Positions 5,386-24,303 of a stretch of 64,000 nt of DNA are shown here, piece by piece (positions within the stretch are counted from its first letter, which is position 1; each line of letters starts with the position of its first letter). Under the pieces are notes generated by a model. It was not told the origin of the DNA. It was given only the letters and a program-made list of their open reading frames with translations, and ran no database searches. The DNA is taken from NCBI GenBank assembly GCA_965116915.1, contig OZ220739.1, positions 630,864 to 694,863 of the forward strand, written 5' to 3'. This stretch comes from Tepidiformaceae bacterium. Lineage in GTDB: Bacteria; Chloroflexota; Dehalococcoidia; Tepidiformales; Tepidiformaceae. A program made the position numbers and the translations under genes.

Positions 5386-5451
5386 CCTACGGAGACCATG
5401 CGCGGCCCTCGCTAGCCTCCTCGCATGTCCATGTCCTGGAGCCGCGAGCTC
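5386..5451 (+). repeat. Direct repeat, copy 2 of 2, bracketing the efflux operon
   Basis: See 499-565. Copy 2 begins 53 bp after the permease stop codon. Confidence 0.85.
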
Positions 5452-5722
5452 GTCGCGGCCGACCACGAGGAGCTGGACGAGAGCGACCGCGAGACACTGA
5501 AGAGCGCACGCGGCGCCGCTCGCTGGCATGCGGCTGCCCGAGGGCCACAGCCCGCACGCCGAAGTCGAGGACGGTGGGCGCGTCGTCATCGAGCCCACGG
5601 CTAGAGGCTGAACAACACCTCGAAGGTGGTACTGTCTACCGTCAAGTTAGGCCCGCGTGGCCGCGGTCCCGACCGCGAAGCCCCACCAAGGCCCTCGGTG
5701 GCGAGGAGCGCCGCGAGCTTAT

Positions 5723-5839
5723 CGACTTGCTCCTCGAGGACGCGACCATCGACGGCGAGGGCCGCCTGCCGCTCACGCTCGCCATCCCGGCCGACGGAGA
5801 GTTAGTGCCGATTGCGGAACTGGAGCCGACTACTCGGTC
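5723..5839 (+). repeat. Hybrid att-like junction: module B (5723-5827) plus 12-bp core GACTACTCGGTC (5828-5839), followed by the helicase 3' part
   Basis: Module B aligns to 24304-24405. The core recurs at 13955-13966 (reverse complement), 52694-52705 (reverse complement), 61130-61141 (reverse complement, 1 mismatch) and 24406-24417 (3 mismatches). Confidence 0.75.
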
Positions 5840-6397
5840 TATACGATGCGGCAGGCGTCACGGCGCTCCTGGCGGATAGGCCAGACAGAGCCCGTCCAGG
5901 TCGTCTTCATGGCCTACCGGAACACCCTCCAAGCCGACGCACTGAAGCTCGTGGCGCAGAAGCTCCAGTCCTCGCTCGCCGTCGAAGGCGAGTTGCCAGA
6001 GGGCGGCCTCGCTGCCTACGGCGATGACGGCGACGACCTCATGCTCGCGCTCGCGAGGAAGATCGTCGCGGGCGAGGAGGACGCCGGCTCGGTCGAGTCG
6101 GTCTTCGCCCAGGCCCAGCAGGTCGCGGCGGAGGCCGAGACGCTGCTGGTGGACGAGGAGTGGGCTGCGCCGCAGCCGGTACTCGTCGAGACTGCGGTGG
6201 CCATCGAGAGTGCCGCGGACACCGTGGACTTGGAGCCGCAGCGGTCGCTGTTCTCGTGGGCGGAGTTCCTGACGGACACGCCCGAAGAGCCGCTGCCGTC
6301 TCCGGGTCGCCGACGGCACGAAGCTCCGACGCTCTCGTTGTTCGAGTGGGCGCTCGAACAGGAGCGGGAGGCGGAGCTGGCTAGCGCCGCTGGATAG
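5828..6397 (+). pseudogene. 3' fragment of an SNF2-like helicase (motif VI to stop), detached from any 5' part
   Basis: Translation DYSVYTMRQASRRSWRIGQTEPVQVVFMAYRNTLQADALKLVAQKLQSSLAVEGELPE... is near-identical to the C-terminus of the intact helicase (60581-62830, minus) and to 52145-52705. There are no helicase codons upstream of 5828. Confidence 0.85.
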
Positions 6398-6896
6398 GAT
6401 CAGGAGGGAGGGCGTCGCGTCTGCGGCAGCCCTCCTTTCCGGTCCCACTGTATGCGCCCTCTCGTGCGTTAAGGGGTAGCCGTACCCGATGGCCTGTCGA
6501 CAGCAGCCCGAGCCGCCGAGGCCGCCTGATCTGTGGGCCCAGCTCGGCGAGTGCGCGAACCACGTTGGGATCATCGGGGCGGACTGGTCCGTATTGAAAG
6601 CACGCGGCGGTGCGGGGAACCCGACACCAATTTGAAGGTGGCCCAGTTGGATGTCCCGTCGTCGAGGCGCGATTGGTAGCGGATACTGCGTGAGAGGGTC
6701 GGCCCCCTCGGTGGCGCACTCGTGGACGAGCCGGGAACCCCATGGAGAAGCCACGGAGAGCGGTGAGGCGATTCGCGGCCCCATCGATGCGTGGGAGGCA
6801 GTGATGGGCGTCAAGCTGCTGACGGACGGAGTGCGCGACGAACTGCGTGTCGCTCATCAGGAACAGGTGAAAACCTGGCCTAGGTCTCCCAACTAC

Positions 6897-7658
6897 CTAC
6901 CAAGCGAGCTCCGCGACGACAGGGCCCACCACGCCCGCCACAATCGTCACCGCGATCATGATCGCGTTCGGCCCGAGCACGTCGGGTGGTGCCTGAACAC
7001 CCGCCTGCGTGCGAACGGAGCGGAGGTCGAACTTCCGGGGATGCCAGGCTGCGTTGGCCTCAACCCGTCGCCTCAGCCAGTATCCACCCGCCGTAGCTCC
7101 GAGGTATGCGATCACGACGGCAGCAGCGAGCCAGGGGTAGTCCCCTGCCAGACTAGCGGCCCCAACCCACGCGGCGTACGCACAAACCAGTGCGGCAATG
7201 AACCACCAATCACTGCCGATAATGCCGGTCCATCTCTTGTGTTTCTGCGCCCATGTCATCTGGGAAGCCCGCTGGAAGATGTTCCTGATCCCGATGAGGC
7301 TGTCGTCGTAGTGTTCGGCCCGCCCATCGGAACCGGACACTTGGGCCACCCAGGAACCCTTATCCTCGCTGGTGCTCAGGTTGGCCGAGAACAGCACCCG
7401 CTCGATCGAGTCTGACTCCCAAGCATTCAACTCCAGTGACTCAGGATCCGTGACCCTGTTCCTCTGCATTGCCAGCTCCTGAATCGACTCAGCTTCCAAC
7501 TTCGCAGAGCTGAGCTCGCGCCGACCTCTCAAGGTCCATTCGACATCGATGCCAGACCCCTCGGGGGCGAGCAATTGCTCAAGCTCCTCCAAATCGTCAA
7601 GGAACAGCGTTCCGGTGGGGTGCAGCCACTCCTCGGCAGAGCGATTCAGTCTCGACAA
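6897..7658 (-). CDS. Hypothetical membrane protein (soluble N-terminal half, 3-4 C-terminal TM segments)
   Basis: 253-aa ORF with a TTG start. Hydrophobic segments WWFIAALVCAYAAWVGAASLAG, WLAAAVVIAYLGATAGGYW and AIMIAVTIVAGVVGPVV. Lower GC than the flanks. No family recognised. Confidence 0.5.
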   Translation of the reverse strand: MSRLNRSAEEWLHPTGTLFLDDLEELEQLLAPEGSGIDVEWTLRGRRELSSAKLEAESIQELAMQRNRVTDPESLELNAWESDSIERVLFSANLSTSEDKGSWVAQVSGSDGRAEHYDDSLIGIRNIFQRASQMTWAQKHKRWTGIIGSDWWFIAALVCAYAAWVGAASLAGDYPWLAAAVVIAYLGATAGGYWLRRRVEANAAWHPRKFDLRSVRTQAGVQAPPDVLGPNAIMIAVTIVAGVVGPVVAELAW

Positions 7659-8111
7659 CGGCTGACCTCAATCGATGGGGCGAGACTCCGCTGATATTCC
7701 TATCCGGGTCTCTTGTTCGCGCCAGAGCGGGATGGTAGCAGGGGCGGACACTGCAAGCCCCTCTTCGCTAGAGACATCCTCATCGGGCCGTAGACCTCAG
7801 ACGCTGATGACCATTCCGACCGTCTAGTACCGGATGTGAACAGGCCCTAGCGGCCCGCGCACCAGGGCGTCAAGGCCCACGGGCGCCGATTCCGGTGTCG
7901 CGTGGTTCGGCCTCTAGCGGGCTCAAGAGTGCCGGCAAGTCTCGTAACGCGGCGCATACGCTCGAGACTTGTGAAACGATGGGGGCCGGCCCTAAGTCAA
8001 CGACTCAGACCAATTGCCACCCCGAAGGAGGCGGGCTAGACTCCGCGCCCACTTGTCCCGGCGCGATGTACGCTGTAAGTAGGAGATTGCGCGCAATCCG
8101 GAGGAGGGTTG

Positions 8112-8756
8112 ATGGCAATCACGGTCGTCGACGTACTGAAGGCCAACATGGCCTTCCCAGGCCTTCGCCTTCTCCCGGGGGATGGTGACTTCCAAGCCTT
8201 TAGGGAAGCCATGGAGACCGAGGTCTTTCTGCGTCGAGATGAAGAGCAGGGGCTCAACGTACTCCTGATGAGTCGCGAACGGACAACGCTCCTGCTGACT
8301 GACGATGGCTCCTCAATCGAGCGGCAGCACCTTGTGCGCGATGACTTGGCTTTCCTCGCACATGCCATCTCCACCTGCATCGCGAAGAGTACGCTGGGCG
8401 ACAACCTTCCCGAGGCGTTCGGCTACAACCTTGAGTTCGTGGCCGAGCAGGACTCTGACTCAGCCGCCGGCGAGTACTTAGTCGGCAAGCTCATCAATGG
8501 GGCGATATCAGAAGGGGCACCATGGGAGCTTGGGAGCGGCGGCTTCGTACTCCGGTTTCACGAAGGAGATAGAGTCTGGAACTTCACCATCGAGCCTCGC
8601 TTCAATGAGGTAGCCACATCGCGGATTTTCGTCCACGTGAACCTACATCAAGGTGAACAGCGGCTTCCTGAAAGTGAAGAGATTATCGAGGGCCTGACCC
8701 TCGCGTGGGATCGAACCCACTTGCTCCTCGACACCATTGACCAAGGAGGTCGCTAG
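8112..8756 (+). CDS. Hypothetical protein, first gene of a 4-gene operon
   Basis: ATG at 8112 preceded by GGAGGAGG (8100-8107). The stop TAG shares a base with the next GTG (TAGTG at 8754-8758). No family recognised. Confidence 0.6.
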   Translation: MAITVVDVLKANMAFPGLRLLPGDGDFQAFREAMETEVFLRRDEEQGLNVLLMSRERTTLLLTDDGSSIERQHLVRDDLAFLAHAISTCIAKSTLGDNLPEAFGYNLEFVAEQDSDSAAGEYLVGKLINGAISEGAPWELGSGGFVLRFHEGDRVWNFTIEPRFNEVATSRIFVHVNLHQGEQRLPESEEIIEGLTLAWDRTHLLLDTIDQGGR

Positions 8757-9628
8757 TGGCTCTGCCAAAGTTGAGTAGCAACGACCCAAAGATCAAGCGG
8801 GAGGGGGAGACATACCTCACGCCCGTTCGAGGTGCCAACTACAATTGGGAGCATGCGACACCGGAGACGGTCGGCGTGGTGGACCAGCCTGGCAGTGCAG
8901 CATGGCTGAGTGGCGATGCCTCGTTGCTAAGTGATTCCCAGTCCATCTATGGCTTCGGGCGCACAGAGTCTGATCCTCGAGAGTCTCAGATAATGGCAGA
9001 AGAAGTACATCGGTACTTCAACGCCTTGAGCATGGGCCGCCCTTCTCGAGCACACGACCTCTGGTTGTACTGGGCGGATACTGCACCGATGTTTCTCGGC
9101 GAAGAATCACTCCGGGACGCCGTAACAACGGCCACGCTCAGCAACCTGTGGAGCGCAGTCGCCAGAAACCAGGATGTACTTCTGGAGGCCTTCACTGGCT
9201 ACGGTCGCTTCGAGCATGACTTGGAAACTGCTCACGCCCTGTTCGTCGAAGGGGATGTCCCTGGGCACGAAACAGACGACTCGCGGGAAGAGCTCGTGAA
9301 GCAGTGGCTCCACGAGCTTGACGAGAATGCGCAGGAAAAGGGGATCGCGATCGGCCCTGAAGTACGTGGTGAAGTAGAACGACTTCTTTACGACCTGACG
9401 GAACTCCCAGACGACGCGTCCGTAATCGCCGACGAGGGCGGAGCTGCCGAGATTGAAGTCTTCAGGGTCCCGGACGGTGCGTTTGTTCTGCGATGCGAAC
9501 CGGGGCGGCGAGCACTCTGCGTGGTGTCCGTCGATCGATTCCGTCGGAGGGCCAGGTACCAGAATTCGCGGATGCTGCCCGACGGATTCGTGAACGAAGG
9601 ACTGGCCTCTGTGCTTCAGTACAGCTAA
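8756..9628 (+). CDS. Hypothetical protein (290 aa)
   Basis: GTG start overlapping the upstream stop, with AAGGAGG at 8743-8749. No family recognised. Confidence 0.6.
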   Translation: MALPKLSSNDPKIKREGETYLTPVRGANYNWEHATPETVGVVDQPGSAAWLSGDASLLSDSQSIYGFGRTESDPRESQIMAEEVHRYFNALSMGRPSRAHDLWLYWADTAPMFLGEESLRDAVTTATLSNLWSAVARNQDVLLEAFTGYGRFEHDLETAHALFVEGDVPGHETDDSREELVKQWLHELDENAQEKGIAIGPEVRGEVERLLYDLTELPDDASVIADEGGAAEIEVFRVPDGAFVLRCEPGRRALCVVSVDRFRRRARYQNSRMLPDGFVNEGLASVLQYS

Positions 9629-9647
9629 GGCCGCATCTCTAGTCTGA

Positions 9648-10085
9648 ATGCAGTTTGTGGAGCCCGGAGAAGTCCTTGGCAGGGCATGGTTTTCGAGCAG
9701 GAAGTCCCCATCCGACGTCAGGAAGGACTTTCGAGACGCCTATCGTAGGCACGGCGAGGTATCCGTTGATCGGATGCTTCCGTCGGCTGACCTCATCTAC
9801 CTCCGAGCCCTACATGACCAAGAGGCAGTGGATCGCGCCGGCGTCGAGAGGTTCTACGGTTGGAAGTGCTTCACCTTCGAGGAAGAGGAGTGGGAGGAGG
9901 AAGCCCAAGATGCCTCATGGGAAGTCAGGGCCACTCCGAAGGAACCCATCAACCCATGGCATGCAGACGTTGTTCCTTTCGACGGCGGGGACAGCCTGAC
10001 GGAACTCTGTACCCTTGTCTCACGCGCTGAGTGGCTGGACAGGACCGAGATTCCACACGGGCCCCCTGGATACCCTCCGATATGA
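9648..10085 (+). CDS. Hypothetical acidic protein (145 aa)
   Basis: ATG 20 bp after the previous stop, same strand. Contains a Glu-rich stretch (FEEEEWEEEAQD). No family recognised. Confidence 0.5.
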   Translation: MQFVEPGEVLGRAWFSSRKSPSDVRKDFRDAYRRHGEVSVDRMLPSADLIYLRALHDQEAVDRAGVERFYGWKCFTFEEEEWEEEAQDASWEVRATPKEPINPWHADVVPFDGGDSLTELCTLVSRAEWLDRTEIPHGPPGYPPI

Positions 10086-10522
10086 GTCCCACCTCGGGGT
10101 GTCCATGGCAGGTGACTGCAGGCTGTCGGGTTCCCCTCGGGCAGGGGCGGCTCAATCTCCGTCCAGCCTGACGCCCTGGGTCTTCTGCTCACAGGCAGGT
10201 CCGGGGTCCCTGTGAAGACTCGTCCAGGATTGACTCGGGTGGCAAGGAAGGCCCAACTCACCATCCCGAATCGACACCTCCGCGTCGAACCTCACGCATG
10301 CCCTCTCGCCCGAGCGTACCGTCATGCCGTGTTGGCACCGCCATGGATTGGCGAGGCTGCCATTCGCTACCACGTGAGGCCGCCAAAGCGGGAGGTCCGG
10401 CCGAACCCGCGGCTGCGTCGGCAACGCTTAGCCTGTCTAGATACGAGATGCACGCCGTGTACCATCGATGTAAGGGAGAAAGGGAAGCCTTGTCTGCGGT
10501 GAGAGCTAGTGTTTCGACTGAA

Positions 10523-11233
10523 ATGCCTGGGCAGGAGCGAACGTGTTCCTGCCCCGCCAGCTTTGAGGAGCACGAAAGGGCGTTTATGAATTACTACCTC
10601 TTCGGGGAAAGGACTGCTCCACTATTTCCCGAAGATCAGAGTTCTTTTGGGGACATCGACGTAGCCCACTACTCCTTCATGCTCGACTACTTGTCCACAT
10701 CGGAATTTGTTCTTGAGGAACACCGCCAGTACTTCAAGAAAGAACTTCTGGTTCAGGGGAGAACCGCGCGTAAATCTCGCGAGGATCTTCCGAAAGCTCT
10801 TGAGGCACGTAGGCAAGCCCAACAAGAGCGCTACGCCACGTGTCTTCCGGGAACCCCCTCCCGTTGGATGCCGTATGCCCGTATTCTTGTGACACTACTG
10901 AACGGTACGCACGGTCACGAATTTCTGCGACCCTTTGTTGGCGGACTGACCTGTAGAAAGTGCGGCTCAAGATTCTCCGATACTCACGACCTCGGCGAGG
11001 CGCAGGACCTTGGCGAGGCATACACCGGTAACTCCTGTCGGCGTTGCGGTGCAGTCCCTACCCCCTTCTGGGTCAGTCGAGGCAAGAGAAGGCTAAGCCG
11101 CTGGTATGGGGCAGGAGTTAGGAGCTTGACGTGGTCCTGGACTCAGGTGAGAAAAGAGGTGCCCTGGAGCCTGCTCATGCTCCTACTGGGGGGTGTTGTC
11201 TCTAACCGGATTACTAGCTGGTGGCCCTTCTAG
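10523..11233 (+). CDS. Hypothetical protein with two CxxC pairs and a C-terminal TM anchor
   Basis: The ORF is open from 10298, but the plausible start is ATG 10523 or 10586, where GC drops. CRKCGSRF ... CRRCGAVP suggests a Zn ribbon. Terminal hydrophobic segment WSLLMLLLGGVVSNRITSWW. Confidence 0.45.
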   Translation: MPGQERTCSCPASFEEHERAFMNYYLFGERTAPLFPEDQSSFGDIDVAHYSFMLDYLSTSEFVLEEHRQYFKKELLVQGRTARKSREDLPKALEARRQAQQERYATCLPGTPSRWMPYARILVTLLNGTHGHEFLRPFVGGLTCRKCGSRFSDTHDLGEAQDLGEAYTGNSCRRCGAVPTPFWVSRGKRRLSRWYGAGVRSLTWSWTQVRKEVPWSLLMLLLGGVVSNRITSWWPF

Positions 11234-11317
11234 CCGAACCTCTGCGACAAGGTGCCAACCCCACCGGTCAGGGGGCACCACAGCGGTCCGTGTGGCCCGG
11301 TCTTCCTGGTCCTAGGG

Positions 11318-11560
11318 CTAGTTAGGAGGCCCGGCCTTCCACCTCTCCAGGTGTTCCTTGGCTGTGGTGGGCCAGTGATTCAAGGCTCCTTCCAAGGCCA
11401 ACAGCTCCGCGTAGATTGCGTCGCACGCTTCGGAGGATACCCGTCCGTGCTTGGCACGGTACTCAGCACGTTCCACTGCAGCGATGAGCTCCTGGAAGGA
11501 GCGAGAGAAGAGCTGGTAGGCCGCTTGTATCTCGCTGGCCTCTTCTCGTTCGTCCTTCAA
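11318..11560 (-). CDS. Hypothetical small helical protein (80 aa), last gene of the ParB-like operon
   Basis: TTG start overlapping the upstream stop (TTGA on the minus strand at 11557-11560). No family recognised. Confidence 0.45.
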   Translation of the reverse strand: MKDEREEASEIQAAYQLFSRSFQELIAAVERAEYRAKHGRVSSEACDAIYAELLALEGALNHWPTTAKEHLERWKAGPPN

Positions 11561-12039
11561 GCGGTTTTCCGCAGCTCTAGGATCTTGGGCAGGGCAGCTT
11601 CATACACCGCATCGTTGATGACATCTGAACCGAGGCGTTCCATCTCCTGAAGGAAGATCGCGATACCGCTGGCCTTGATCTCCAGCTTGCGAGCTGCGCT
11701 CGACGTGTCCTGCATGACGGTACGCAACTCCCCGGGACTCATAGCTCGGAGCCGCATGTAGCGGTAGTCTGAACCGGCTCGGTAGCCCTCGTAGAGGCGG
11801 ATACCGTTGGCGTCTTTCACCTTGAGCGCGTCCGCGACGGCCTCCCTGAGGAACTCCATCAAGATGAAATCTCCACCGATGCTGGAGTAGCGACTGTTGA
11901 GATCCGCCCGAAGGCGAGCCAGCGTTCGAACGTTCGTCAACGCGAATACGACTTCGGACACGGTGAAGTAGGGTTCGCTATTCGCGATCTGAGCGATCTT
12001 GTTTCCGATCAACTGGTCGTAATAGCGATTCCGCCTCAT
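11557..12039 (-). CDS. Hypothetical protein (160 aa), translationally coupled to the ParB-like gene
   Basis: ATG overlaps the stop of the upstream gene (ATGA on the minus strand at 12036-12039). No family recognised. Confidence 0.55.
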   Translation of the reverse strand: MRRNRYYDQLIGNKIAQIANSEPYFTVSEVVFALTNVRTLARLRADLNSRYSSIGGDFILMEFLREAVADALKVKDANGIRLYEGYRAGSDYRYMRLRAMSPGELRTVMQDTSSAARKLEIKASGIAIFLQEMERLGSDVINDAVYEAALPKILELRKTA

Positions 12040-13025
12040 GGAACCAACTCCAATCGTTCTTTCTCACCTGTAAGGTGGGCACGCACGTCTTCGAGGAACT
12101 CAATATAGCCGGGAAGCTCCTGGATAAGGCGCTGCGTTCGCAGATCGCCAGCGGTGGAGGCGATGACCTCTGGGCGGAAAAGCCTGAGCCTGGCGAGCTG
12201 CGCCAGGGCGCGGTCGAGAGCCAGCACGGCGTCGTTGGCTTCAAGTTCCTTCACGCGCCGCCCCACAATGTCGGGCGTTACTGCAACGGCCTTCCCTTCG
12301 CTGCTGAAGATGACGGGGTCCGCCTCGCCGGCGCGCAGTCGTTCCTTGTGCTCCTCGGGAACGCGATCGTCCTCAAGGTTGCGAACGGCTTGGCGGGTTG
12401 CATCGCGCCCCCATCCCCTATCTACAGCTGCTTCGGTTAGCGGCTGACGATCATCTTCCTTAGCATTTAGCACCTCTACGATGGATGCGTCAGGGAGCTG
12501 TCGCACCGCTTCCGTGTGGTGGCTCCGACGGTACTCATCGACACGAAGCAGGTTGGTTACCGTGGAGCGGCTGACACCCATCTCCTGGGAGATGCGCTCG
12601 TGCGACCAGTCATCATGTATCTGCTTGAGTCGGCGGATGCCTCTATCTCGTTCGTCCTTCGTGAGTCGCTGACCGTTCCGCGCGTTGGCGGTAGCGGCAA
12701 ACACGGCAGCCTCGTCGTAGGTCCCCTGGTGGATGTTCGCGGGGATCGTGCGACGACCACTCCGGATCGCTGCGGCCAAGCGGTGGAAGCCGTCGGCGAC
12801 GTACAGACCGCCAAGCGTCTCGAACACGTCGATGGGCGGCAATTGATCGAGCACCTCCATGTATTGAAGGATTGTCTCCTCGTCGTTCCCATCCCTGATC
12901 TGGATGGCCGGGTCCATCTCGACCTCTGTAACAGCGATCTCTCTCACTCGAAACGCCTCCCCAAAAGCGCGGGCTATATTACATGATGCCGAGGCCTCCA
13001 TCGGTGCTGCGCAGCCGTGTACCAC
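12036..13025 (-). CDS. ParB/Srx-fold N-terminal domain protein with HTH
   Basis: LPPIDVFETLGGLYVADGFHRLAAAIRSGRRTIPA matches the ParB-like nuclease/NTPase domain pattern. It is followed by the HTH-like ISQEMGVSRSTVTNLLRV. The true start may lie downstream of 13025. Confidence 0.7.
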   Translation of the reverse strand: MVHGCAAPMEASASCNIARAFGEAFRVREIAVTEVEMDPAIQIRDGNDEETILQYMEVLDQLPPIDVFETLGGLYVADGFHRLAAAIRSGRRTIPANIHQGTYDEAAVFAATANARNGQRLTKDERDRGIRRLKQIHDDWSHERISQEMGVSRSTVTNLLRVDEYRRSHHTEAVRQLPDASIVEVLNAKEDDRQPLTEAAVDRGWGRDATRQAVRNLEDDRVPEEHKERLRAGEADPVIFSSEGKAVAVTPDIVGRRVKELEANDAVLALDRALAQLARLRLFRPEVIASTAGDLRTQRLIQELPGYIEFLEDVRAHLTGEKERLELVP

Positions 13026-13331
13026 CCGATGCGTCTTGAGGCCGCTGAGTCGGTTGAGGCCAGCGAAGAGGTCTCCCGCAGCGAGGGTGGGTCGCCGTTC
13101 TCAGCGGACGCATGGGGGTTGGGTACCACTCACTGGAGGCAGCGGGTGTTCGGAGTGGGCAATGGCCGGGGAGAAGCCAGTTCCCGAACACTAAGGAGCG
13201 CTTTCAGGCTGTCGCGCACAGCCGCGGCCAATGAACATCGGTTAGGTGGGCCTCGGCACCGCTGGTACTCTAGCCGCCGGTTTGGTGGGTCATGAACCTC
13301 ACTCAAGAAGGTCCAGTTTGGAGGCTAGGAA

Positions 13332-13817
13332 ATGAACGAGTTCACGCGGAAGGTCATACGGGTAGTCGATCAACTCCAAGTGGGAGCGACGAAGAGCTAC
13401 GAGGAGGTATCGCTGGAAGCTGGCAGCACGTCTGCTGCCGCCCAGAGTGTCGGCGCCGCCATGGAGAGTGCCGTGAATGAGGGTTGGCACGGGCCCTGGT
13501 GGAGAGTCACCGGAAAGGGCGGTGAGATCAAGACGCCACGAGAATGGCACCAGAGGGAGATTCTCGACGCTGAGGCATTGGCTGTAAGCAATGCTGGAGC
13601 GCAACTCGGTGCGAGGAGGTATCGGTTCAAGTTTGCAGATGGCCATGAGGGACCGCGAGAGATACGCGCGGATCGGGTGGAAACGGACTCTGAGGGTCGT
13701 CCCCAGAGTTTCTGGCTAGGGGACGAGATGGTAGGTCAGGTGGACTACTTCGCCGTTAATAGCTGGTGGGTAGAGGGACTTGCCATTGGCAGCCATGAGA
13801 ACAACCCTGTCTCATAA
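13332..13817 (+). CDS. MGMT/alkyltransferase-like (ATL-type) DNA-binding domain protein lacking the acceptor Cys
   Basis: GATKSYEEVSLEAGSTSAAAQSVGAAM...PWWRV follows the Ogt/Ada C-terminal domain pattern (TYGxIA..G.P.AARAVG ... PCHRV), but with Trp at the Cys position as in ATL proteins. RBS GGAGG at 13320-13324. Carries a ~70-aa C-terminal extension. Confidence 0.7.
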   Translation: MNEFTRKVIRVVDQLQVGATKSYEEVSLEAGSTSAAAQSVGAAMESAVNEGWHGPWWRVTGKGGEIKTPREWHQREILDAEALAVSNAGAQLGARRYRFKFADGHEGPREIRADRVETDSEGRPQSFWLGDEMVGQVDYFAVNSWWVEGLAIGSHENNPVS

Positions 13818-13874
13818 GATGTGGCGACGGGCCCCAAGCGTGGATAGGCGCCCGCAACCGGCGCAGCCTTCAAC

Positions 13875-13966
13875 GGAGGGCGCGGTGTGCTGCGACGCGA
13901 GGAGGGGGCAAACTCGCTCCCCAGGTATACCGCAGCGTTCGGTGCGGATTGGAGGACCGAGTAGTC
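13875..13966 (-). repeat. Hybrid att-like junction: helicase codons, core (13955-13966, reverse complement), then module A (13954 down to ~13875)
   Basis: The minus strand reads ...GLDLVEFPTIWWYETDYS then GTCCTCCAATCCGCACCGAACGCTGCGGTATACCTGGGGAGCGAGTTTG. This aligns to module A at 24418-24495. Confidence 0.75.
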
Positions 13967-14160
13967 CGTCTCGTACCACCAGATCGTAGGAACTCCACTA
14001 GGTCGAGTCCCGTCTGCACGAGCCGTGGGTGACGTAGACGAGCACCAGGCGCCCCGCCAGCGGCCTGTAGGCGACGGGGTCGGCCAGCGGCCATCCCTTC
14101 GGATGGAGCCAATCCTCGGCTAGTCGAAGAACGAGGCCAGGGAGAGTCGTCACTCGCAAG
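13955..14160 (-). pseudogene. Internal remnant of an SNF2-like helicase, ending exactly at the core
   Basis: The minus strand reads ...HPKGWPLADPVAYRPLAGRLVLVYVTH-PRLVQTGLDLVEFPTIWWYETDYS. The intact helicase reads YPKERALVDLVAAERLAGRRVLVYATH...(about 55 aa missing)...HPRLVQTGLDLVDFPTIAWYETDYS. One frameshift. Confidence 0.7.
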
Positions 14161-14206: not shown

Positions 14207-16588
14207 TTAGGCCGGAACGGGCGTCTCGCTCTTGGGCATCCGGTAGCCGACGCGAGGCTGGGTAAAGATGTAGGTCGGATCGCTGGCGTTGTCCCCGAGC
14301 CTCGTGCGCAGTGCGTGGACAACGGTTCGGATTGGCCCGACGTCACCCTCGCCGTCCAGGTCCCAGACCCGCCTGAGGAGTTGCTCGTAGGTGGACACGC
14401 GCCCGGCGTTGGCCGAGAGCTCTGCCAGCGTCCGGTATTCGATGTCCGTCAACGGGACCGGTTGGCCCGCAAGCGTTACCTCCCGCTCCTTGTAGTCGAC
14501 GGTCAGGTCCCCCAGGACATAGGGCGCGGACGGCTGCTGGGCGTCGAGCCTGCGCAGGACGGCCCTGATCCTGGCCACCAGCTCAGTCGGTGAGAAGGGC
14601 TTGACGACGTAGTCGGCAGCCCCCGCGTCGAACGCCCGGGCGACGAGCTGATCCTGGCCGTAGGCTGAGACGAAGATGACCGGGACGTTCGCGGTGCGAC
14701 CGATCTCGCGCATCAACTCGATTCCGTCCGTCCCCGGCAGCATCAGGTCGAGCAGAACCAGACGGGGCTTCTCGTCCTCCACCAGCCGGCGCGCCTCCTC
14801 GGGGTCGGCGGTGAGCAGCGGCTCGAAGCCGGACTTCACGAGCACGTCACGGACGTACCTGAGCGCCTCCGGTTCATCGTCCACCGCGAGGATGCGCACC
14901 GGCGCCTCCTCAGCTCCCGCTCCCGAGGCCCGCCGGCTGAGCCGTGCGGGCACGGCCGGTGTGAAGAAGCCCGCCTCCTCCACCGTGGGGATCGTGAAGA
15001 TAAACCGCGCGCCCAGCCCGGGGCCTTCGCTTTCCGCCCAGATGCGTCCCCCGTGTGCCTCCACGATGCCCTCGCAGATGGCGAGACCGAGCCCCGTGTC
15101 TCCTCCCTGCGCCTCCGCGTCGATGCGGGAGAACTTGCGGAAAAGGTGGGGGAGGCTCTCAGCCGGGATGCCCCGTCCCTGGTCCGCGACGGAACATGCG
15201 ACGTGGACTCCCCTCGGCACGGCCTTCACCTGCAGCGTGGAGGTCTCAGGAGAGTTCCTCGCCGCGTTTGCCAGCAGGTTGCCCAGCACCTGCACGATGC
15301 GCAGCCGGTCCGCCATCACCCAGGGAAGGTCGGGGGGAGTCTCGACCTCGACGTCCTGCCTGCCCCCGCCACTCGTGAAGCCGTCGCGGGCCTCGGCCAG
15401 CAGCAGGGCCACTTCGGTCGGTTCGGGGGTGATTGCCAGGGTTCCCGTCTCGATGCGGGCAACGTCCAGCAGGTCGCTCACCATCACGTGCATGCGGTCG
15501 ATCTGCGCGTCGATGATGCGGAAGAACTGGTGGGACTCGGTGGGGCTCAAAGCGGCTGGAGGATCGAGCAGGGTCGTGACCGAGCCCTTCAGCGTGGCGA
15601 GGGGGGTGCGCAGCTCGTGGCTCACCATTGCCAGGAATTCGGCTCGCAGCCGCTCAAGCTCATCGAGGGCGGTCATGTCCTGCACTGTGATCACCACTGT
15701 CTCGACCTCACCCCCCTCCGCGCGGATGGGCGTGGCGTTCACCAGCGTCGTGACGCTGCGCCCATCCGGCACTGATAACACAACCTCCTCGGCCCGCACC
15801 GTCTCGCCGCTGCTGAGCGCCTGGGTCATGGAGAGGTCGTGCAGCGAGACCTCTCGCCCGTCCGCGCGCCGCGCCGTCAGCACCTCCAGCAGGTCCTGGG
15901 GTGAAGCGCCCGCTTCGTGCAGGCTGCTGACGATCCGCTCCGCCTCGCGGTTGAGCGACACCGGCAGACCAGTCTTCGCGTTGACGACCACCACGCCCAC
16001 GGGCGAGGTGTCGACCAGCGTCTCGAGGTCGGCCCGGGCCTTCTGCTCCTCCCGGTAGCGGCTTGCGTTCGAGATCACCATCGCCGCCTGGGAAGCGAAC
16101 ATCACCAGCGTCGCCTCGTCGTCGTCGCTGAACTCCCTTCCGCCTTCCGGGGCGGCGAGGAAGAAGTGGCCGGCGCGTTCGCCCTGGTGGCGGATGGGCA
16201 TCCCCAGGAACGGGATGACCGAGGCCTCGACGGGCAATTGGGAGTCGGGCAGGCCCAGCGCCTGCAGGTGACCGCGGAAGTCCGCCAGCCGCAGCGGTCC
16301 GGGAACCTCACCCAGGTGCTCGATGAGCCCGGCGTTCTCCGGCAGCCCCCAGAGCCGCTCCTCCTCCTCCGGCGTGAACCCGGAGGAGAGGAACTCTCCG
16401 ATCCCTCCGGCATCATCGAGCACCGTGATCACGCCGTAGCGAGCGCGCGTCAGCGCCGTGGCGGAGTCGAGCACGCCCTGCAGCACCGTGTCGTAGTCCA
16501 GGCTCTCGCTGATCCGCAGGCTGGCCTCGCTCAATGTCGAGAGCCGTTCCCTGAGCGAGGCTACCTGTGCGCTGTCTTCTTGATTCAT
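14207..16588 (-). CDS. Hybrid sensor histidine kinase fused to an OmpR-type response regulator (GAF/PAS - HisKA - HATPase - REC - winged helix)
   Basis: H-box SHELRTPLATLKG. G-boxes DQGRGIP and GLGLAICEGIVEAHGGRIW. REC VRILAVDDEPEAL...LVLLDLMLPGTDG. C-terminal wHTH LTDIEYRTLAELSANAGRVSTYEQLLRRVW...TQPRVGYRM. Confidence 0.9.
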   Translation of the reverse strand: MNQEDSAQVASLRERLSTLSEASLRISESLDYDTVLQGVLDSATALTRARYGVITVLDDAGGIGEFLSSGFTPEEEERLWGLPENAGLIEHLGEVPGPLRLADFRGHLQALGLPDSQLPVEASVIPFLGMPIRHQGERAGHFFLAAPEGGREFSDDDEATLVMFASQAAMVISNASRYREEQKARADLETLVDTSPVGVVVVNAKTGLPVSLNREAERIVSSLHEAGASPQDLLEVLTARRADGREVSLHDLSMTQALSSGETVRAEEVVLSVPDGRSVTTLVNATPIRAEGGEVETVVITVQDMTALDELERLRAEFLAMVSHELRTPLATLKGSVTTLLDPPAALSPTESHQFFRIIDAQIDRMHVMVSDLLDVARIETGTLAITPEPTEVALLLAEARDGFTSGGGRQDVEVETPPDLPWVMADRLRIVQVLGNLLANAARNSPETSTLQVKAVPRGVHVACSVADQGRGIPAESLPHLFRKFSRIDAEAQGGDTGLGLAICEGIVEAHGGRIWAESEGPGLGARFIFTIPTVEEAGFFTPAVPARLSRRASGAGAEEAPVRILAVDDEPEALRYVRDVLVKSGFEPLLTADPEEARRLVEDEKPRLVLLDLMLPGTDGIELMREIGRTANVPVIFVSAYGQDQLVARAFDAGAADYVVKPFSPTELVARIRAVLRRLDAQQPSAPYVLGDLTVDYKEREVTLAGQPVPLTDIEYRTLAELSANAGRVSTYEQLLRRVWDLDGEGDVGPIRTVVHALRTRLGDNASDPTYIFTQPRVGYRMPKSETPVPA

Positions 16589-19090: not shown

Positions 19091-19959
19091 TCCCGATGCC
19101 ACGGCGACGCACCGCGTGCCGCCCGACCACTTTGGGCAGGCACCGGAGCAATGTAGGCAGGGCTTCTGTCAGAAGTGGGCCGACCAACCCGGTTGGCGAG
19201 AGCTCACAACTCCCAACCCTCTGCGCTGGCGCAAGAGCGTAGTGCAGCCCAAACCAAAACACCGGCCGTCCCTGCAGGGCTTCCCGGCCCCTTCGAAACT
19301 CCGCCACCTACCGACAGCCAACTTCCTCACATACCCCCCAGGAACGCGGGCGTGTAGTCCCCTACAGGGGATTACACCCGACTCTCGGCGCAGGAAGACT
19401 CTCTACGTCGACACCCGATAGCAGTGCGGCTGTGGCCCTGGCGGCCGCCTGTAATCGCTCGGGACGAGGAGACGACATGGACGACAGCGATGCCCTCGAC
19501 GTGAGTGAGCTTGACACTGACCCCTCCACCACGAAGCCGAACGACCATGTGCAAGCGGGCAGCGACGTGACCCTCAGGGTCGAGTGGCGGACCGGTCCGC
19601 GCACACGGGCGTGGGATGAACTGTGGCGTCGACTCCTCGCTAGAGTCCGCGAAAGAGCCACGGCGGATGGAGGTCCCGACGAAGGCGAGTTGCCTCCCGG
19701 AGCGCCGCCCTCACCGGACAACCCAAGCTCGTAGAGGGCTTTCTGGCAGGTGGGTGTGCTCACGAGCGGCTTCCTGTTGGCTCCGTGTCTAAGCTTGAGC
19801 GAGGTCAGCGGAGGTCTTTGGCGCTCCGGGAATGCGCAGGAGCCGCATCAACCCAACCAAATGCGACCGAACCGTAGCCTGGCCAACCGAGTCGGGATGG
19901 CCGTCTCGATGCTGTGGTTTGCCGTCGCAGCTAGCCAAGACACCGAGTGGATAGGACGC

Positions 19960-20181
19960 ATGGCTGACTGGACCCTTCGGGAAGCCAAGACCCGCTCCAG
20001 CGCCTTGGTCGACGCCGCCCTCGTGGGCAACCCCCAGTGGGTCACGCGGCGGGGCCAACCTGCCGTCGTCGTGCTGGCCGTGGATGACTACGAGCGCCTT
20101 CGACGGATCGAGAAGGCGGGTGCGCCCACACTGAGAGAGTTGCTCCTCGAGATTCCCCGGGACGGGGGCGAGTTCGAGTGA
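19960..20181 (+). CDS. Phd/YefM-family type II antitoxin (orphan)
   Basis: MADWTLREAKTRSSALVDAALVGNPQWVTRRGQPAVVVLAVDDYERL matches the Phd/YefM N-terminal pattern. Only a 20-codon ORF follows the GTGA overlap at 20178-20181. No toxin gene is present. Confidence 0.75.
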   Translation: MADWTLREAKTRSSALVDAALVGNPQWVTRRGQPAVVVLAVDDYERLRRIEKAGAPTLRELLLEIPRDGGEFE

Positions 20182-20545: not shown

Positions 20546-21946
20546 ATGATGAAGGCGATTATCTACACCCGCGTCTCGACGGGCGAGGAGGAACCGGACG
20601 GGACATCCCTCGACCGGCAGGAGCGAGCGTGTCTCGAGTACGCGGTCGAGCAGCACTGGGAGATTGTCCGCTGCATCCGGGATAAGGGTAGCGGAGACCT
20701 GCTCGAGCGCGAGGGTCTCGCCGAGCTGCGTGACGCGCTCCGGCAGGGTACGGCCGACGTGGTCGTTGCGCACGCAGTCGATCGCCTGTCGCGAAGCCAG
20801 AGCCACCTGGGCATCCTGTACGACGAGGTTCATTCAGCAGGCGTAGCGCTGGCCTTCGTGACCGAGCGATTCGAAGACACCGCAGTGGGGAGCTTCATCC
20901 TCGCCGCGCGGGCGTTCGTCGCCGAGGTCGGTCGCGAACAGACCGCGGATCGCTCCATGCGCGGGAAGGAAGCGCGCGCCCGCAGCGGCCGTCTCCCCCA
21001 GGGATCCGGCCGCGGCTGCTACGGCTACACCTACAACCCTGACACAGGACGCCGCGAGGTTGAGCCACGCCAGGCCGGCGTTGTCCGCCGGATCTTCGGG
21101 CGCTACGCCGAGGTTCGCAGCTTGTCGACCATCTCCAGTGAGCTGAACGACGAGGGCATCCCGGCGTTCTCCGGGGGCCGCTGGTACCCGATCACGGTAC
21201 GGCGCCTGCTCCTCAACGAGGCCTACATCGGCCGCACGGTGTACCGCCGGACAAAGCGGGTCGGGGTGGGCGCAGGTCAAGCGGGCAGGGGAACTCGCGT
21301 CATGGAGCGCCCCGAGGAAGAACGAATAGAGATTCCCGGGGCTACGCCAGCGATCATCGGCCACGAGCTCTGGGAGCGGGTCCAGAGGATCCTGGAGGAC
21401 CCCGAGCGAACAAGCCGACGTTCCCCTCAAGAGCGGCACTACCCGCTTCGTGGTCGGCTGCGCTGCGGCCTGTGCGACAGCGCGATGGTAGGGCAGACCC
21501 TCACCTCGAAAGGCAAGAGCTACCCGTACTACCGCTGCCGCCATGCGTACACGAAGGACCGGTCGCGCCGCTGCGCAGCGCGGTACATCCCGGCCGACGG
21601 GCTCGAGGACCAGGTCTGGGCGGAGCTGTGCAAGGTGCTCGCCGCGCCCGAGGTCGTCCTGCGCGAGTTGCAGCGGCCTCGCGGTGCCGACGTCCACACT
21701 GAAGAGCGCGACCGTCTCACGTCCGAGGTTGCCTCGCTGGGCGAGGCCAGCGAGCGCCTCCGTCGGACCTGCGTGGCCGTCGCTGGGTGCTTGGACAGCG
21801 GAAGGCAGGAGGAGTTCGAACTCGTGCTCGAGGCAATTCAACTGAGCGTGGCGGCAACTCGCGAGAAGGTCACAGTTGAGGGTGTGGTGCCCTTAGAACC
21901 TTGCAAATCTGCTCAAGAAGGGTTTATCACCACTGAACAAACATAG
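20546..21946 (+). CDS. Large serine recombinase (phage-integrase/transposase type)
   Basis: Catalytic N-terminus AIIYTRVSTGEEE. Resolvase core VVVAHAVDRLSRS. Recombinase domain ITVRRLLLNEAYIGRTVYRR. Zn-ribbon RLRCGLCDSAM...YYRCRH. C-terminal coiled coil. Confidence 0.9.
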   Translation: MMKAIIYTRVSTGEEEPDGTSLDRQERACLEYAVEQHWEIVRCIRDKGSGDLLEREGLAELRDALRQGTADVVVAHAVDRLSRSQSHLGILYDEVHSAGVALAFVTERFEDTAVGSFILAARAFVAEVGREQTADRSMRGKEARARSGRLPQGSGRGCYGYTYNPDTGRREVEPRQAGVVRRIFGRYAEVRSLSTISSELNDEGIPAFSGGRWYPITVRRLLLNEAYIGRTVYRRTKRVGVGAGQAGRGTRVMERPEEERIEIPGATPAIIGHELWERVQRILEDPERTSRRSPQERHYPLRGRLRCGLCDSAMVGQTLTSKGKSYPYYRCRHAYTKDRSRRCAARYIPADGLEDQVWAELCKVLAAPEVVLRELQRPRGADVHTEERDRLTSEVASLGEASERLRRTCVAVAGCLDSGRQEEFELVLEAIQLSVAATREKVTVEGVVPLEPCKSAQEGFITTEQT

Positions 21947-22108: not shown

Positions 22109-22320
22109 CCCGGAACACGCGTCGCCGGAGTGGTTCGGTTGTCGACCTGCTCTAGCACGCGGAGCAGGCGGCGGCCGATCGCGATGACCTAACGACAGCC
22201 CTCGCCAGTGCGGTGAGGGCTGGCCGGTTTGACACCGAGCGGCTGCGCTCCATGGTGAGGGAATACGGATCCTTGGACACGCAAGCGCAAGTGGCGTCGG
22301 CGCGCGGTGCCTCGCACGCG
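22109..22320 (+). pseudogene. 3' fragment of an AbiEi-like antitoxin gene (paralogue of 30240-30818)
   Basis: DNA aligns to 30602-30815 at roughly 85-90% identity by eye (PEWFVVDLLQHAEQAAADRDDLTTALASAVR.GRFDTERLRSM.REYGSLDTQA). Contains in-frame stops. Homology starts abruptly at CCCGGAACAC. Confidence 0.75.
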
Positions 22321-22462
22321 GAGATCCAACTGAGGCTGCGGCTCAGTCCAACTGCTTTCGCGTGAGAAAAAGTCTGGCAGTAAGATGGCCCAGTCCTGCT
22401 TTTGCGACAGAATTTCTAGTGAGCGTGGCGACCTTGCTCACACGAGGGGATCTGGAACACCC

Positions 22463-23293
22463 ATGACTGCGGATGTCAGGCCCAGGCGCTCCCCCGTCGG
22501 AATCGACTTGGTCCGCCGGCTCTCCTATGAGGGCGACCGCATCTTCACGACGGACCGCGCTCGGGAGCTGGCTCCGCTCGTGGGCCTGAAGGACTCCTAC
22601 GTCTGCGAGGCGCTGCAACGCCTCGGGCGCGATGGCTGGGTTGTCCCGCTGCGGCGGGGGCTCTACGCGATGTCCTCCACGGTGCCGGGCAGCACCATCG
22701 TCCACGAGTTCGAGGTCGCGATGGCCCTGGTCCACCCCGCCGCCATCTCCCACTGGTCGGCGCTGCACTTCCATGGCCTGACCGAGCAGGCGCCGCGAGC
22801 CGTCTTCGTCCTGACCACAACGGAATCCTCCGTGCCGCGCACGCGCGGGGAGGGAGCTGAGGAGGGCAGCGGCTGGCCCGTGGTTGGGGACACCGCCTAC
22901 CGGTTCATCCAGGTACAACCGGAGCGCTTCTTCGGCGGGGAGCGCGTCTGGGTCGGCGATGCCCGTGTGGCCGTCACCGACCGCGAGCGCACGCTGCTGG
23001 ACGGACTCTCGATGCCCCGACACTGTGGCGGCTTCGCCGAGGTCCTTCATGCGTTCGACGTCGCACTGCCCGACCTCGACATCCACCGCATCACCAGCTA
23101 CGCCCTGCAGCTCGACGCCGCGACGGCTAAGCGTCTGGGGTGGGTGCTGGAGCGGCTCGGGGTTGAGTCGCCCGCGCTGGCCGAGTTGCCCATCAAGGGC
23201 TACCGCAAGCTCGATCCCTCGGGGCCGAATAACGGACCCCACAACGGTCGCTGGATGGTTCGCGAGAACTTGCCAGGGCTGGTCGCCACGTGA
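22463..23293 (+). CDS. AbiEi-family type IV antitoxin / transcriptional regulator
   Basis: N-terminal wHTH-like YVCEALQRLGRDGWVVPLRRGLYA. AbiEi core ISHWSALHFHGLTEQAP and VAVTDRERTLLDGL. The stop overlaps the GTG of a truncated AbiEii gene (GTGA at 23290-23293). Confidence 0.75.
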   Translation: MTADVRPRRSPVGIDLVRRLSYEGDRIFTTDRARELAPLVGLKDSYVCEALQRLGRDGWVVPLRRGLYAMSSTVPGSTIVHEFEVAMALVHPAAISHWSALHFHGLTEQAPRAVFVLTTTESSVPRTRGEGAEEGSGWPVVGDTAYRFIQVQPERFFGGERVWVGDARVAVTDRERTLLDGLSMPRHCGGFAEVLHAFDVALPDLDIHRITSYALQLDAATAKRLGWVLERLGVESPALAELPIKGYRKLDPSGPNNGPHNGRWMVRENLPGLVAT

Positions 23294-23470
23294 GTCCGCT
23301 TCGGACGCGCATCGAGGAGGCACGCCGGCAACGCTGCGTGCAGTGGGATGTGCTCGAGCGGGCCTACATGCTGTCCTGAATCTTCCCAGGCGTGGGTCAG
23401 GTCCCGGTGCTCCGCAACACCCCTAGCCTTCAAGGGGTGGCACGGCGCTCAACCCCCGCACCTCGACTCC
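23290..23470 (+). pseudogene. N-terminal remnant of an AbiEii-type nucleotidyltransferase toxin
   Basis: VSPLRTRIEEARRQRCVQWDVLERAYMLS then a stop. After a frame change, GVGQVPVLRNT..FKG resembles the AbiEii N-terminus (LEKDY.LSW.L.GI....L...LVFKGGTAL). No nucleotidyltransferase core follows. Confidence 0.6.
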
Positions 23471-23473
23471 CTT

Positions 23474-23513
23474 CGGAAATGTCGGTACTTATGGACACCC
23501 ACCGACATTTCCG
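23474..23513. promoter_or_regulatory. Perfect 13-bp inverted repeat (CGGAAATGTCGGT N14 ACCGACATTTCCG), candidate AbiEi operator
   Basis: Read directly. It ends 13 bp upstream of the AbiEi_4-type gene start at 23527. AbiEi antitoxins are known to autoregulate through inverted repeats in their promoters. Confidence 0.55.
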
Positions 23514-23526
23514 GAATCATTGAACC

Positions 23527-24129
23527 ATGAGCAGGACAGGCACCGATGGGATACTCGAGTTCGTGCGCGGCGCCGGGCTGGTCCGTCCTCGTGACCTTGA
23601 GGCAGCAGGCGTGCCGGGGGGCTACCTATCGCAACTGGCGCACCGGGGTCTCCTGGAGCGTGTCGGACGCGGCCTTTACGCCGTGCCGGGTGCTGCACCT
23701 AGCGAGCACCGTTCGCTGGCTGAAGTCTCCAAGCGGACCCCCCGAGGAGCGATCTGCCTGCTCTCAGCGCTTCGCTTCCACGGACTGACCAGCCAGACGC
23801 CCCCCGACGTCTGGCTGGCGATTGGCCCAAGAGATCGGGCACCGAGAGAAGACGGAGTTCGCCTGCGGATCGTGCGCGTTTCGGGCGAGGCGCGTAACGC
23901 TGGCATCGAGGCTCATGTCGTCGAGGGCGTACCCGTCCGTATCTATGGCGTGGCGAAGACCGTCGCGGACTGCTTCAAGTTCAGGAACAAGATCGGCGTC
24001 GACATCGCTGTCGAGGCTCTGCGCGACTGCCTCGAACAGCGCCGCTGCGCGACCGACGAACTCGCCGAACACGCTCGTATTTGCCGCGTCTCGCGCGTCA
24101 TGCGTCCCTATATGGAGGCTCTGGCGTGA
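23527..24129 (+). CDS. AbiEi_4-type type IV antitoxin
   Basis: RPRDLEAAGVPGGYLSQLAHRGLLERVGRGLYA, ICLLSALRFHGLTSQTP and RIYGVAKTVADCFKFRNKIGVDIAVEAL. The stop overlaps a GTG (GTGA at 24126-24129), but only 13 codons follow. Confidence 0.8.
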   Translation: MSRTGTDGILEFVRGAGLVRPRDLEAAGVPGGYLSQLAHRGLLERVGRGLYAVPGAAPSEHRSLAEVSKRTPRGAICLLSALRFHGLTSQTPPDVWLAIGPRDRAPREDGVRLRIVRVSGEARNAGIEAHVVEGVPVRIYGVAKTVADCFKFRNKIGVDIAVEALRDCLEQRRCATDELAEHARICRVSRVMRPYMEALA

Positions 24130-24303
24130 AAATCAGGCGTTCCCGGAACGGTGTTACGGCGGTGTAATCGGGCCGTCATCGCGCCGTACCTCATGGGAGC
24201 CAACAGGAGGGGGCAGGCGCACCGGGTGGACCAGCTGGTTCCGAGAACCACTAACCTGGCGACCTAGATGACGACGCGCTTGCCGCCCTCGGTTCTGTGT
24301 GCA

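Follow-up and report, generated by a model that had tools for sequence, protein, structure and literature searches.

Is a segment of DNA bounded by inverted recombination sites a working switch, or the remains of recombination that has ended? This question is raised by an ~8-kb segment (positions 5723–14160) of a 64,000-nucleotide stretch of contig OZ220739.1, from a Tepidiformaceae bacterium of the Chloroflexota (assembly GCA_965116915.1), which we call the window. A first-pass annotation had proposed that the segment arose by site-specific inversion between an attP-like site and an attB in a helicase gene. Comparison with related loci (prefixed L below) indicates that scars of the attR and attL types lie on either side of the segment, left by an integrative element that depended on a large serine recombinase (LSR) and targeted a helicase gene, and that the segment is a fossil, not a working switch. 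As far as the data show, this is a known kind of serine-integrase system, with no new mechanism and no active switch.

Reciprocal hybrid junctions bound the segment

At the left junction, the plus strand passes from a sequence that we call module B into the 12-mer GACTACTCGGTC (5828–5839) and then in frame into the helicase codons DYSVYTMRQASRRSWRIGQ..., up to a stop codon at 6395–6397. On the right, positions 13955–13966 are the 12-mer in reverse complement, and the minus strand reads ...PTIWWYETDYS, core, module A. These are the complementary half-sites in inverted orientation that the first-pass annotation had described. The left junction (B, core and helicase 3' end; 5697–6397, plus strand) and the right junction (helicase remnant, core and A; 14119–13858, minus strand) are reciprocal hybrids of two site types that the window also has, the B-core-A site at 24300–24590 and the helicase cores at 52694 and 61130. 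The sites and helicase pieces are as follows, with helicase codon positions numbered throughout on a 962-codon open reading frame (ORF).

5697–5827, plus strand: module B, left (P) arm of attP and attR; relic of the last ~45 LSR codons, the remaining gene being absent
5828–5839, plus strand: core GACTACTCGGTC of the attR-type junction; likely crossover dinucleotide GA at 5828–5829
5840–6397 (with the core, from 5828), plus strand: helC, the 3' 186 codons of an SF2 helicase from motif VI onward, in an open frame; 82% in a tblastn match with residues 777–962 of H3
6398–6548, plus strand: native 3' flank of helicase 3' ends; homologues follow the helicase stop codon in L012, L009, H2 and H3
13858–13954, minus strand: module A, right (P') arm of attP within the attL-type junction; 80% to 24412–24514 and 88% to L003 and to the attL of L010
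13955–13966, minus strand: core GACTACTCGGTC of the attL-type junction, from sequence match and site alignment
13967–14119, minus strand: helN, decayed helicase remnant, approximately codons 671–707 and 751–780
24300–24590, plus strand: uninterrupted B-core-A, attP-type relic without an integrase gene; core GAGTTATCGGTC; a homologous relic is in L003
52156–52767, minus strand: H2, helicase 3' fragment, codons 758–961; unoccupied attB core at 52694–52705
60581–62830, minus strand: H3, intact 749-aa SF2 helicase gene (ResIII and Helicase_C); unoccupied attB core GACTACTCCGTC at 61130–61141

The modules were recovered by a repeat finder, which matched module B at 5723–5780 to 24304–24361 (86% identity) and at 5783–5839 to 24361–24417 (91%), and module A at 13858–13960 to 24412–24514 (80% complementary). 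Comparison with relatives placed the start of the homology between module B and its source gene at about 5697 and the far end of module A at about 24590. With up to one mismatch, the 12-mer occurs five times in the window, against 0.46 expected (0 of 100 shuffles reached five), and four of these five matches are the predicted cores at 5828, 13955, 52694 and 61130. The uninterrupted B-core-A copy that had been placed at 24304–24495 does exist, but the site spans 24300–24590 and its core (24406–24417) is identical to GACTACTCGGTC at only 9 of 12 positions. Integrase-less attP relics are present both here and in L003. A tblastx comparison of the segment with the rest of the window was very noisy, and only the matches to B, A, helN and helC were meaningful. 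Seen from outside, the attR (plus strand) and attL (minus strand) of the window converge; at one end of the interior between them is helC with its native flank, at the other A with 7.3 kb of 60%-GC cargo.

The origin of module B

A 21-mer of module B matched two Tepidiformaceae (Chloroflexota) metagenome-assembled genomes (MAGs) in a scan of one genome per species. On OZ242321.1 (L002/L004), a 532-aa LSR gene with Resolvase, Recombinase and Zn_ribbon domains reads ...ELVPIAEPEPTTRSIR and a stop codon through B and the core, and a helicase 3' end comes next. The C-terminus of the L002/L004 LSR is ...GELVPIAEPEPTTRSIR followed by the stop; module B corresponds to its last ~45 codons, the very last of which extend across the core, and residues 535–585 match window positions 5694–5846 at 84% (tblastn). 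Alignment with the intact integrase genes of L004, L006, L007, L009 and L005 likewise puts the start of the B homology near 5697. These alignments show that module B is the 3' end of an integrase gene and that the attP core overlaps the region of the integrase stop codon. Only this tail survives at both window copies of B, with different truncation points; the cognate LSR gene is absent from the window, which retains no more than the last ~45 codons. The run from B into helicase codons is in an open frame, as had been annotated, but it is fortuitous, B coding in another frame, that of the integrase. Neither module is an ordinary part of a conserved neighbouring gene in the relatives compared.

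The LSR family gave 1,120 matches at E ≤ 1e-20. Among the best 120 of these 1,120, most C-terminal tails continue past the core and, in a shifted frame, into the 3' end of the helicase; integrase-B-core-helC is therefore the usual integrated state. The junction of integrase, B, GA and helC was found in L006, L007, L009, L014, L015, L018 and L027, and precomputed Pfam hits place all three LSR domains (Resolvase, Recombinase and zinc ribbon) beside the att arm in L004, L006, L007 and L009. The integrase loci have in common a conserved block that starts ~0.8 kb before the integrase gene, takes in a 63–64-aa gene and reaches the end of helC. In a paralogue in the same genome (L005), homology with this block continues up to the core and then gives way to an unrelated gene, so the core is a true recombination point. 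No attL was found within 10 kb upstream of five intact integrases, which implies elements longer than 10 kb; the JGI loci gave further attR junctions and no attL.

Two other readings of these sequences were rejected. If helC were part of the element (attP being B|helC), L005 would be expected to share it, but L005 shares sequence to the core only; moreover, one exchange between B|A and helN|helC yields all four junction types. B was also considered as encoding one part of a protein fused to the product of the helicase 3' end, a reading contradicted by its coding in the integrase frame; the differences between the two window copies of B are nearly all non-synonymous in that integrase frame.

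The 63–64-aa gene (MK/RxxK...GPEPRVVA[VI]EYRPxPDAEARLRRIAAILL...) always precedes the cognate integrase, at ~9590–9806 in L004–L009. It had no Pfam or PHROG match, and its product is a candidate regulator or directionality factor. In L015, a 195-codon integrase relic (1305–1889) precedes an intact integrase-attR unit by 4 kb on the same strand, and at GA it runs into DNA other than helC or A. This arrangement suggests tandem accretion of elements and additional target sites.

Four site types and a crossover point

Taken together, the arrangements B|A, helN|helC, helN|A and B|helC very probably represent the attP, attB, attL and attR of one site-specific recombination system, as judged from aligned sequences. 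When the attR, attL, attP and attB of the window were aligned with the sites of L003, L004, L006, L008 and L010, half-sites were exchanged reciprocally at one point. A search for attL, its query combining 59 helN residues with translated A, found 211 short ORFs; among the 120 inspected, most were a helicase fragment with an A-like tail (ETE[FVL][SP]V[FS]QS...), so that more than 80 short public ORFs are helN+A-like junctions, that is, attL. No match to the A-arm pattern was found in JGI metagenomes or viral contigs.

The position of the exchange follows from the bases on either side. After GA, typical attL sites carry attP-type bases (GAG TTx TCG GTC), and in attR the bases after GA track the codon variation of the helicase (for example, GAT TAC AGC GTG in L009), which places the exchange at the GA that begins the 12-mer. 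GA is the sole position consistent with both the attR of L004, L006, L007 and L009 and the typical attL of L008, L011 and the >80 ORFs, and we infer from these alignments that strand exchange took place there. Over ~50 bp of attP, the score of the left arm against the reverse complement of the right arm was reached by 12 of 2,000 shuffles, indicating an imperfect dyad symmetry about GA. The dyad score of the attB arms was not significant (241 of 2,000 shuffles), and the left arms of attP and attB resemble each other (score reached by 11 of 2,000).

L008 has an attL and, 10 kb from it on the same strand, the beginning of the conserved block upstream of the integrase, a spacing that fits an ordinary insertion of ~13 kb. 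Direct orientation of attL and attR is therefore normal in the integrated state, and the inverted pair in the window is unusual. The window thus holds a derivative that has been rearranged or inverted, as opposed to a plain prophage-like insertion. The gene directly beside the L008 attL encodes a PIN-TPR-GreABC protein, which the window also has (see below).

A decayed helicase fragment and its relatives

The first-pass annotation had placed helicase codons at both junctions. Such codons do flank both cores, but the 793-aa ORF beyond helN (14207–16588) encodes a hybrid histidine kinase/response regulator, and the helN that adjoins 13966 is only ~150 nt long, with an internal deletion of approximately codons 708–750 and a 1-nt frameshift. 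The split 'helicase' is therefore a 5'-truncated, frameshifted pseudogene fragment. A continuous helicase frame, which flipping the segment had been expected to recreate, is not what would result: the flip would merely join pieces of this decayed fragment.

The dN/dS (ratio of non-synonymous to synonymous divergence) of helC against other copies is 0.15–0.21, and all helicase 3' copies are about equally diverged (83–88% nucleotide identity), in a star-like pattern. An attempt to treat the window helC as the orthologue of the L012 helC, and so to tie attL and attR to one attB, failed on this pattern. Detached helicase 3' pieces (5828–6394, 52148–52705, L012 6729–7298, L004 and L007) keep open frames of ~186 codons, with inter-copy dN/dS of 0.15–0.33 and dS of ~0.45–0.7, next to a helN that has stop codons in L011 and L012. 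Such open frames may mean either that exchange at GA captured the pieces recently from functional genes or that selection acts on the detached piece.

H3, the intact gene, adjoins a DUF6094 methyltransferase gene (63037–63918, minus strand) and belongs to a helicase family with more than 2,000 representatives at E < 1e-30, some of which are 900–1,400 aa long and match H3 by their C-terminal part only. A 90-nt relic of a helicase tail lies at ~36506–36597. The 3' end of H3 (60581–61200) and H2 (52156–52767) form direct repeats of ~610 nt (77–90% identical) around an 8.4-kb island that includes an AAA_14/DUF4143 ATPase gene (53234–54877) and a 1,367-aa gene (54859–58962). Second helicase 3' fragments also occur 0.5 kb and 6.9 kb downstream of the first in L006 and L007, respectively, and together with the H2/H3 repeats they look like island accretion at helicase 3' ends.

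Empty and occupied sites in sister contigs

Three sister contigs carry the kinase-adjacent site. L001, a metagenome contig, is 99.5% identical to and colinear with window positions 4227–26587 and has the same arrangement, so the arrangement is not an assembly artefact. L012 (kinase 94% identical) runs without interruption through the kinase, helN, GACTACTCGGTC, helC and ~150 nt of flank, and represents an empty attB. L011 (kinase 95% identical) has the kinase, helN and a typical attL core, GAGTCATCGGTC, followed by a different A (78% identical) and different cargo, including HEPN_Swt1/DUF499 and DUF1156 genes. L011 and L012 are homologous precisely up to the core and no further. The helN of both is orthologous to that of the window and less decayed, and both share the same two in-frame stops, indicating that the fragment was already a pseudogene in the common ancestor.

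In this assembly-level comparison the flipped orientation of the 8-kb segment was not found: the window and L001 share one orientation, and L011 and L012 differ from them by occupancy. The relatives thus bear out one part of the first-pass proposal, in that an unrecombined helN-core-helC state exists and recombination at the core is recurrent, but not the other, as none has the alternative orientation.

A further contig, L010, meets the window at its other end: its positions 2–95 correspond to window 63907–64000 (96.8% over 94 nt), an apparent overlap with the right end of the window in a related strain. L010 extends the H3-bearing element with SSB, RadC and DUF6094 methyltransferase genes. 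At 9986–10253, ~10 kb to the right of the window end, it has an attL of helN codons 746–780, GACTACTCGGTC and A that is 88% identical to the window attL and is followed by an AAA_15 and DUF4276 gene pair, which we take to be PARIS-like.

The recombinase gene in the window

One complete LSR gene does lie in the window, and the first-pass annotation had proposed testing it on these sites.

20546–21946, plus strand: large serine recombinase (Pfam Resolvase, Recombinase and Zn_ribbon_recom), unrelated to B-core-A

The assignment does not hold. The protein is 27–28% identical to the B-bearing LSR family and lacks a B-like C-terminus, and it appears to have a target of its own. Its gene is followed by a 3' fragment of an AbiEi-like gene (22138–22321) that is 88% identical at the amino-acid level to 30630–30813, within a full copy at 30240–30818, and homology between the window and L011 ends 5 nt past the recombinase stop codon. 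On these junctions, the recombinase probably serves a different element, with the AbiEi-like gene as target. An exact look-up of its sequence returned no match. L011 has the same recombinase gene, and ~70 nt downstream of it lies a B relic joined at GA to unrelated DNA (L011 5501–5660); the AbiEi block of L011 is inverted relative to the window, so that this region, too, has been reshuffled at recombinase sites.

History of the segment

How did an attL and an attR come to face each other? LSRs invert DNA between inverted attP and attB sites, and do so unidirectionally; the reaction needs only two short sites, and its reversal needs a directionality factor (PMC11891168, PMC12286644). Because the two hybrids face each other, a single intramolecular attP × attB reaction is the most economical history, and we give it a probability of roughly 45%. 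The attB of the element very probably lies where an SF2 helicase gene that other mobile elements carry encodes motif VI (...ETDYSVYTMRQ...), and its attP is B-GA-A, with B the 3' end of the integrase gene and A the other arm. On the kinase side, the attB sat in a helicase 3' fragment that was already dead, and an integrase-less attP relic, like that at 24300–24590, would have lain ~8 kb away in inverted orientation. A single reaction between the two, catalysed by a cognate LSR encoded elsewhere and acting in trans, would have inverted all DNA between the two GA dinucleotides (5830–13964) with no need for further breakpoints, and the product, irreversible without a directionality factor, would have been frozen. 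The limits 5840–13954 given earlier for the flipped DNA are equivalent, since the 12-mer is identical in both hybrids. The comparisons establish what B is, the four site types, the exchange point, the vacant site and the other occupant in sister strains, and the lack of the cognate gene in the window; we infer that the scars are reciprocal products of one event, that this event was an inversion and that the enzyme acted in trans.

The site types, the exchange point and the inverted hybrids all fit the inversion first proposed, but other histories give the same junctions, and several points weigh against it. The window attL has CTAC after GA instead of GTTA, that is, attB-type bases where typical attL sites have attP-type bases, which calls for a variant attP whose common core is 12 bp long. 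The L010 attL, which has the same A subtype, has the same bases after GA; the two point to a lineage of elements in which attP and attB have all 12 bases in common, which supports such a variant without proving it. The pre-inversion state, an attP relic with cargo beside an intact attB, was in no genome compared. The star-like divergence of helC (83–88% nucleotide identity) leaves the window helC without a link to the window helN. The placement of an integrase-less attP relic beside a helicase fragment has no explanation, and action in trans is an assumption, the cognate LSR not being in the window.

The same junctions would arise without any inversion if they were two independent scars: an attL at 13.9 kb in the kinase-side fragment and an attR at 5.7 kb in a second, convergent helicase fragment on the MacB side. 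Two later deletions would then have removed the pair of integrase genes along with the remaining two junctions and the intervening DNA. Helicase pieces and LSR site relics are dense here on both strands (the window has five cores, and the L010 attL lies ~10 kb beyond its right end), integrase-less B relics are joined at GA to unrelated DNA in L011 and L015, and given the star-like helC copies the window helC need not be the partner of the window helN. Such a history is nevertheless unlikely, in that it needs four events and a second helicase fragment that left no trace, and both deletions must end just outside the att arms. A more conventional start, direct insertion at the kinase-side attB, would account for the cargo adjoining A, as expected of the interior of an element, and would match the normal product seen in L008; a later illegitimate inversion of a ~0.85-kb block (5697–6548: truncated B, core, helC and flank) and deletion of the integrase module would then have to follow. 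Integrase genes are indeed often truncated in the B-bearing family, but the breakpoints of that inversion are unexplained and ~2.4 kb of integrase module would have been lost without trace: tblastn and blastn found no integrase or integrase-upstream remnant near 6549–6900. We regard this sequence of events as improbable.

An active, reversible switch driven by the recombinase at 20546–21946 is very improbable. Its gene lies only 6.4 kb away, and an LSR with a directionality factor could in principle recombine inverted hybrid sites. Yet, besides its 27–28% identity to the B-bearing family, its missing B and its apparent target elsewhere, two assemblies (the window and L001) have the same orientation, neither orientation would give a functional helicase, and attL × attR recombination needs the directionality factor. 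We give almost no credence to chance similarity or an assembly artefact: the 12-mer is short, but five cores occur against 0.46 expected, the ~100-nt modules that flank it are 80–91% identical, the independent contig L001 has the same structure and the same junction types recur in many other genomes.

Whatever produced the segment, the locus also invites a broader and doubtful conjecture: in Tepidiformaceae, dead helicase 3' fragments might act as mobile landing pads, and attP cassettes that lack an integrase as vehicles for cargo, forming a platform akin to integrons or staphylococcal cassette chromosomes (SCC) at which one LSR family, acting in trans, inserts, swaps and inverts defence islands. 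This would fit the finding of the same site empty, differently occupied or inverted in sister strains, the open frames of detached helicase 3' ends (dN/dS ~0.15–0.2) and the union, at GA, of an old pseudogene helN with an intact helC in L012. If true, exchange at the GA core would be continuing, and the helicase fragment might itself be under selection.

Relation to described systems

The sites resemble those of LSR attP/attB systems of the phiC31, Bxb1, A118 and SPbeta type. Cognate relatives encode Resolvase, Recombinase and Zn-ribbon proteins; the att sites are short, have imperfect dyad symmetry around a 2-bp crossover and occur as four types with reciprocal exchange of half-sites; and integration disrupts a protein-coding gene. 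Unidirectional inversion between inverted attP and attB is known in such systems (PMC11891168, PMC12286644). Here, unlike in those systems, the attP core overlaps the last integrase codons, the enzyme is absent from the locus, the sites are relics known from sequence alone and the attB lies in a pseudogene fragment.

The closest described parallel in organisation is in streptococci, where serine-recombinase integrative and mobilizable elements and Tn1806-like integrative and conjugative elements (ICEs) nest in the SNF2 (methylase and helicase) gene of ICEs of the Tn5252/ICESa2603 family, and truncated SNF2 genes persist as signatures of integration (PMC7168690, PMC12942858). In both cases the target is a helicase-type gene of another mobile element tied to a DNA methyltransferase (here, H3 and DUF6094), truncated target genes are left behind, and elements accrete and decay; the likeness is one of organisation and is taken from the papers. 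The present examples differ in that they come from Chloroflexota (Tepidiformaceae MAGs), have methyltransferase and helicase as separate genes and carry defence-type genes and genes of unknown function, not antibiotic resistance.

Invertible switches, such as those of the small serine invertases Hin, Gin and Cin and the shufflons, also have a segment bounded by inverted recombination sites. Here, by contrast, there is no adjacent invertase, the sites are hybrid attL and attR and not two copies of one site, a single orientation is seen and the flip controls no promoter or alternative gene end. The serine 'transposases' TnpX and TndX (Tn4451/Tn5397) are LSRs that exchange at a GA dinucleotide. 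The B-bearing family shares their domain architecture and likewise has members with several different targets, but its main subfamily is highly specific for one stretch of helicase codons.

The locus offers a natural example, with the empty site of a sister strain as control, of a serine integrase family reshaping a defence-island region, with insertion, cargo replacement and probably inversion as the outcomes. It also supplies candidate attP and attB sites and a likely crossover dinucleotide for a large uncharacterised LSR clade of thermophile-related Chloroflexota, which are possible reagents for genome engineering, and it carries a theme known from Firmicutes, one mobile element nested in a helicase/methylase gene of a second, into a distant phylum.

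Cargo and other features of the window

The DNA between the junctions is lower in G+C than its surroundings, as first annotated, and holds the following.

6549–13857, no strand assigned: low-GC cargo, 60% G+C against 68–71% in the flanks
6897–7658, minus strand: membrane protein gene
8109–11233, possibly to 11650, plus strand: operon of unknown function
11557–13025, minus strand: 160-aa gene and ParB-like gene (phrog_1033, 1.9e-19; TIGR00180, 2.4e-7)
13332–13817, plus strand: DNA_binding_1/ATL-like gene

For most of the cargo genes, no function emerged from Pfam, NCBIfam, PADLOC or PHROGs. Between the segment and the B-core-A site are a Phd/YefM antitoxin gene (19750–20181) and AbiEi antitoxin genes (22385–24129), and positions 25000–60500 hold a dense run of defence-type genes. 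These include DUF4160/DUF2442 genes and genes for the PIN-TPR-GreABC protein (32538–36374), a 1,707-aa DEAD and UvrD fusion (36922–42045), an AAA_21 ATPase (43639–45990) and a SIR2_2 protein (46939–48495).

At the left end of the window, a 64-nt sequence occurs at 502–565 and again, 86% identical, at 5388–5451, as a direct repeat that brackets a whole ABC efflux operon, just upstream of its HlyD-family gene and just downstream of its MacB/FtsX permease gene. The HlyD-family gene, for a 920-aa membrane-fusion protein, contains two sets of three tandem 99-nt repeats (1132–1448 and 1852–2148; 33 codons each, 64–89% identical) that probably encode repeated coiled-coil segments.

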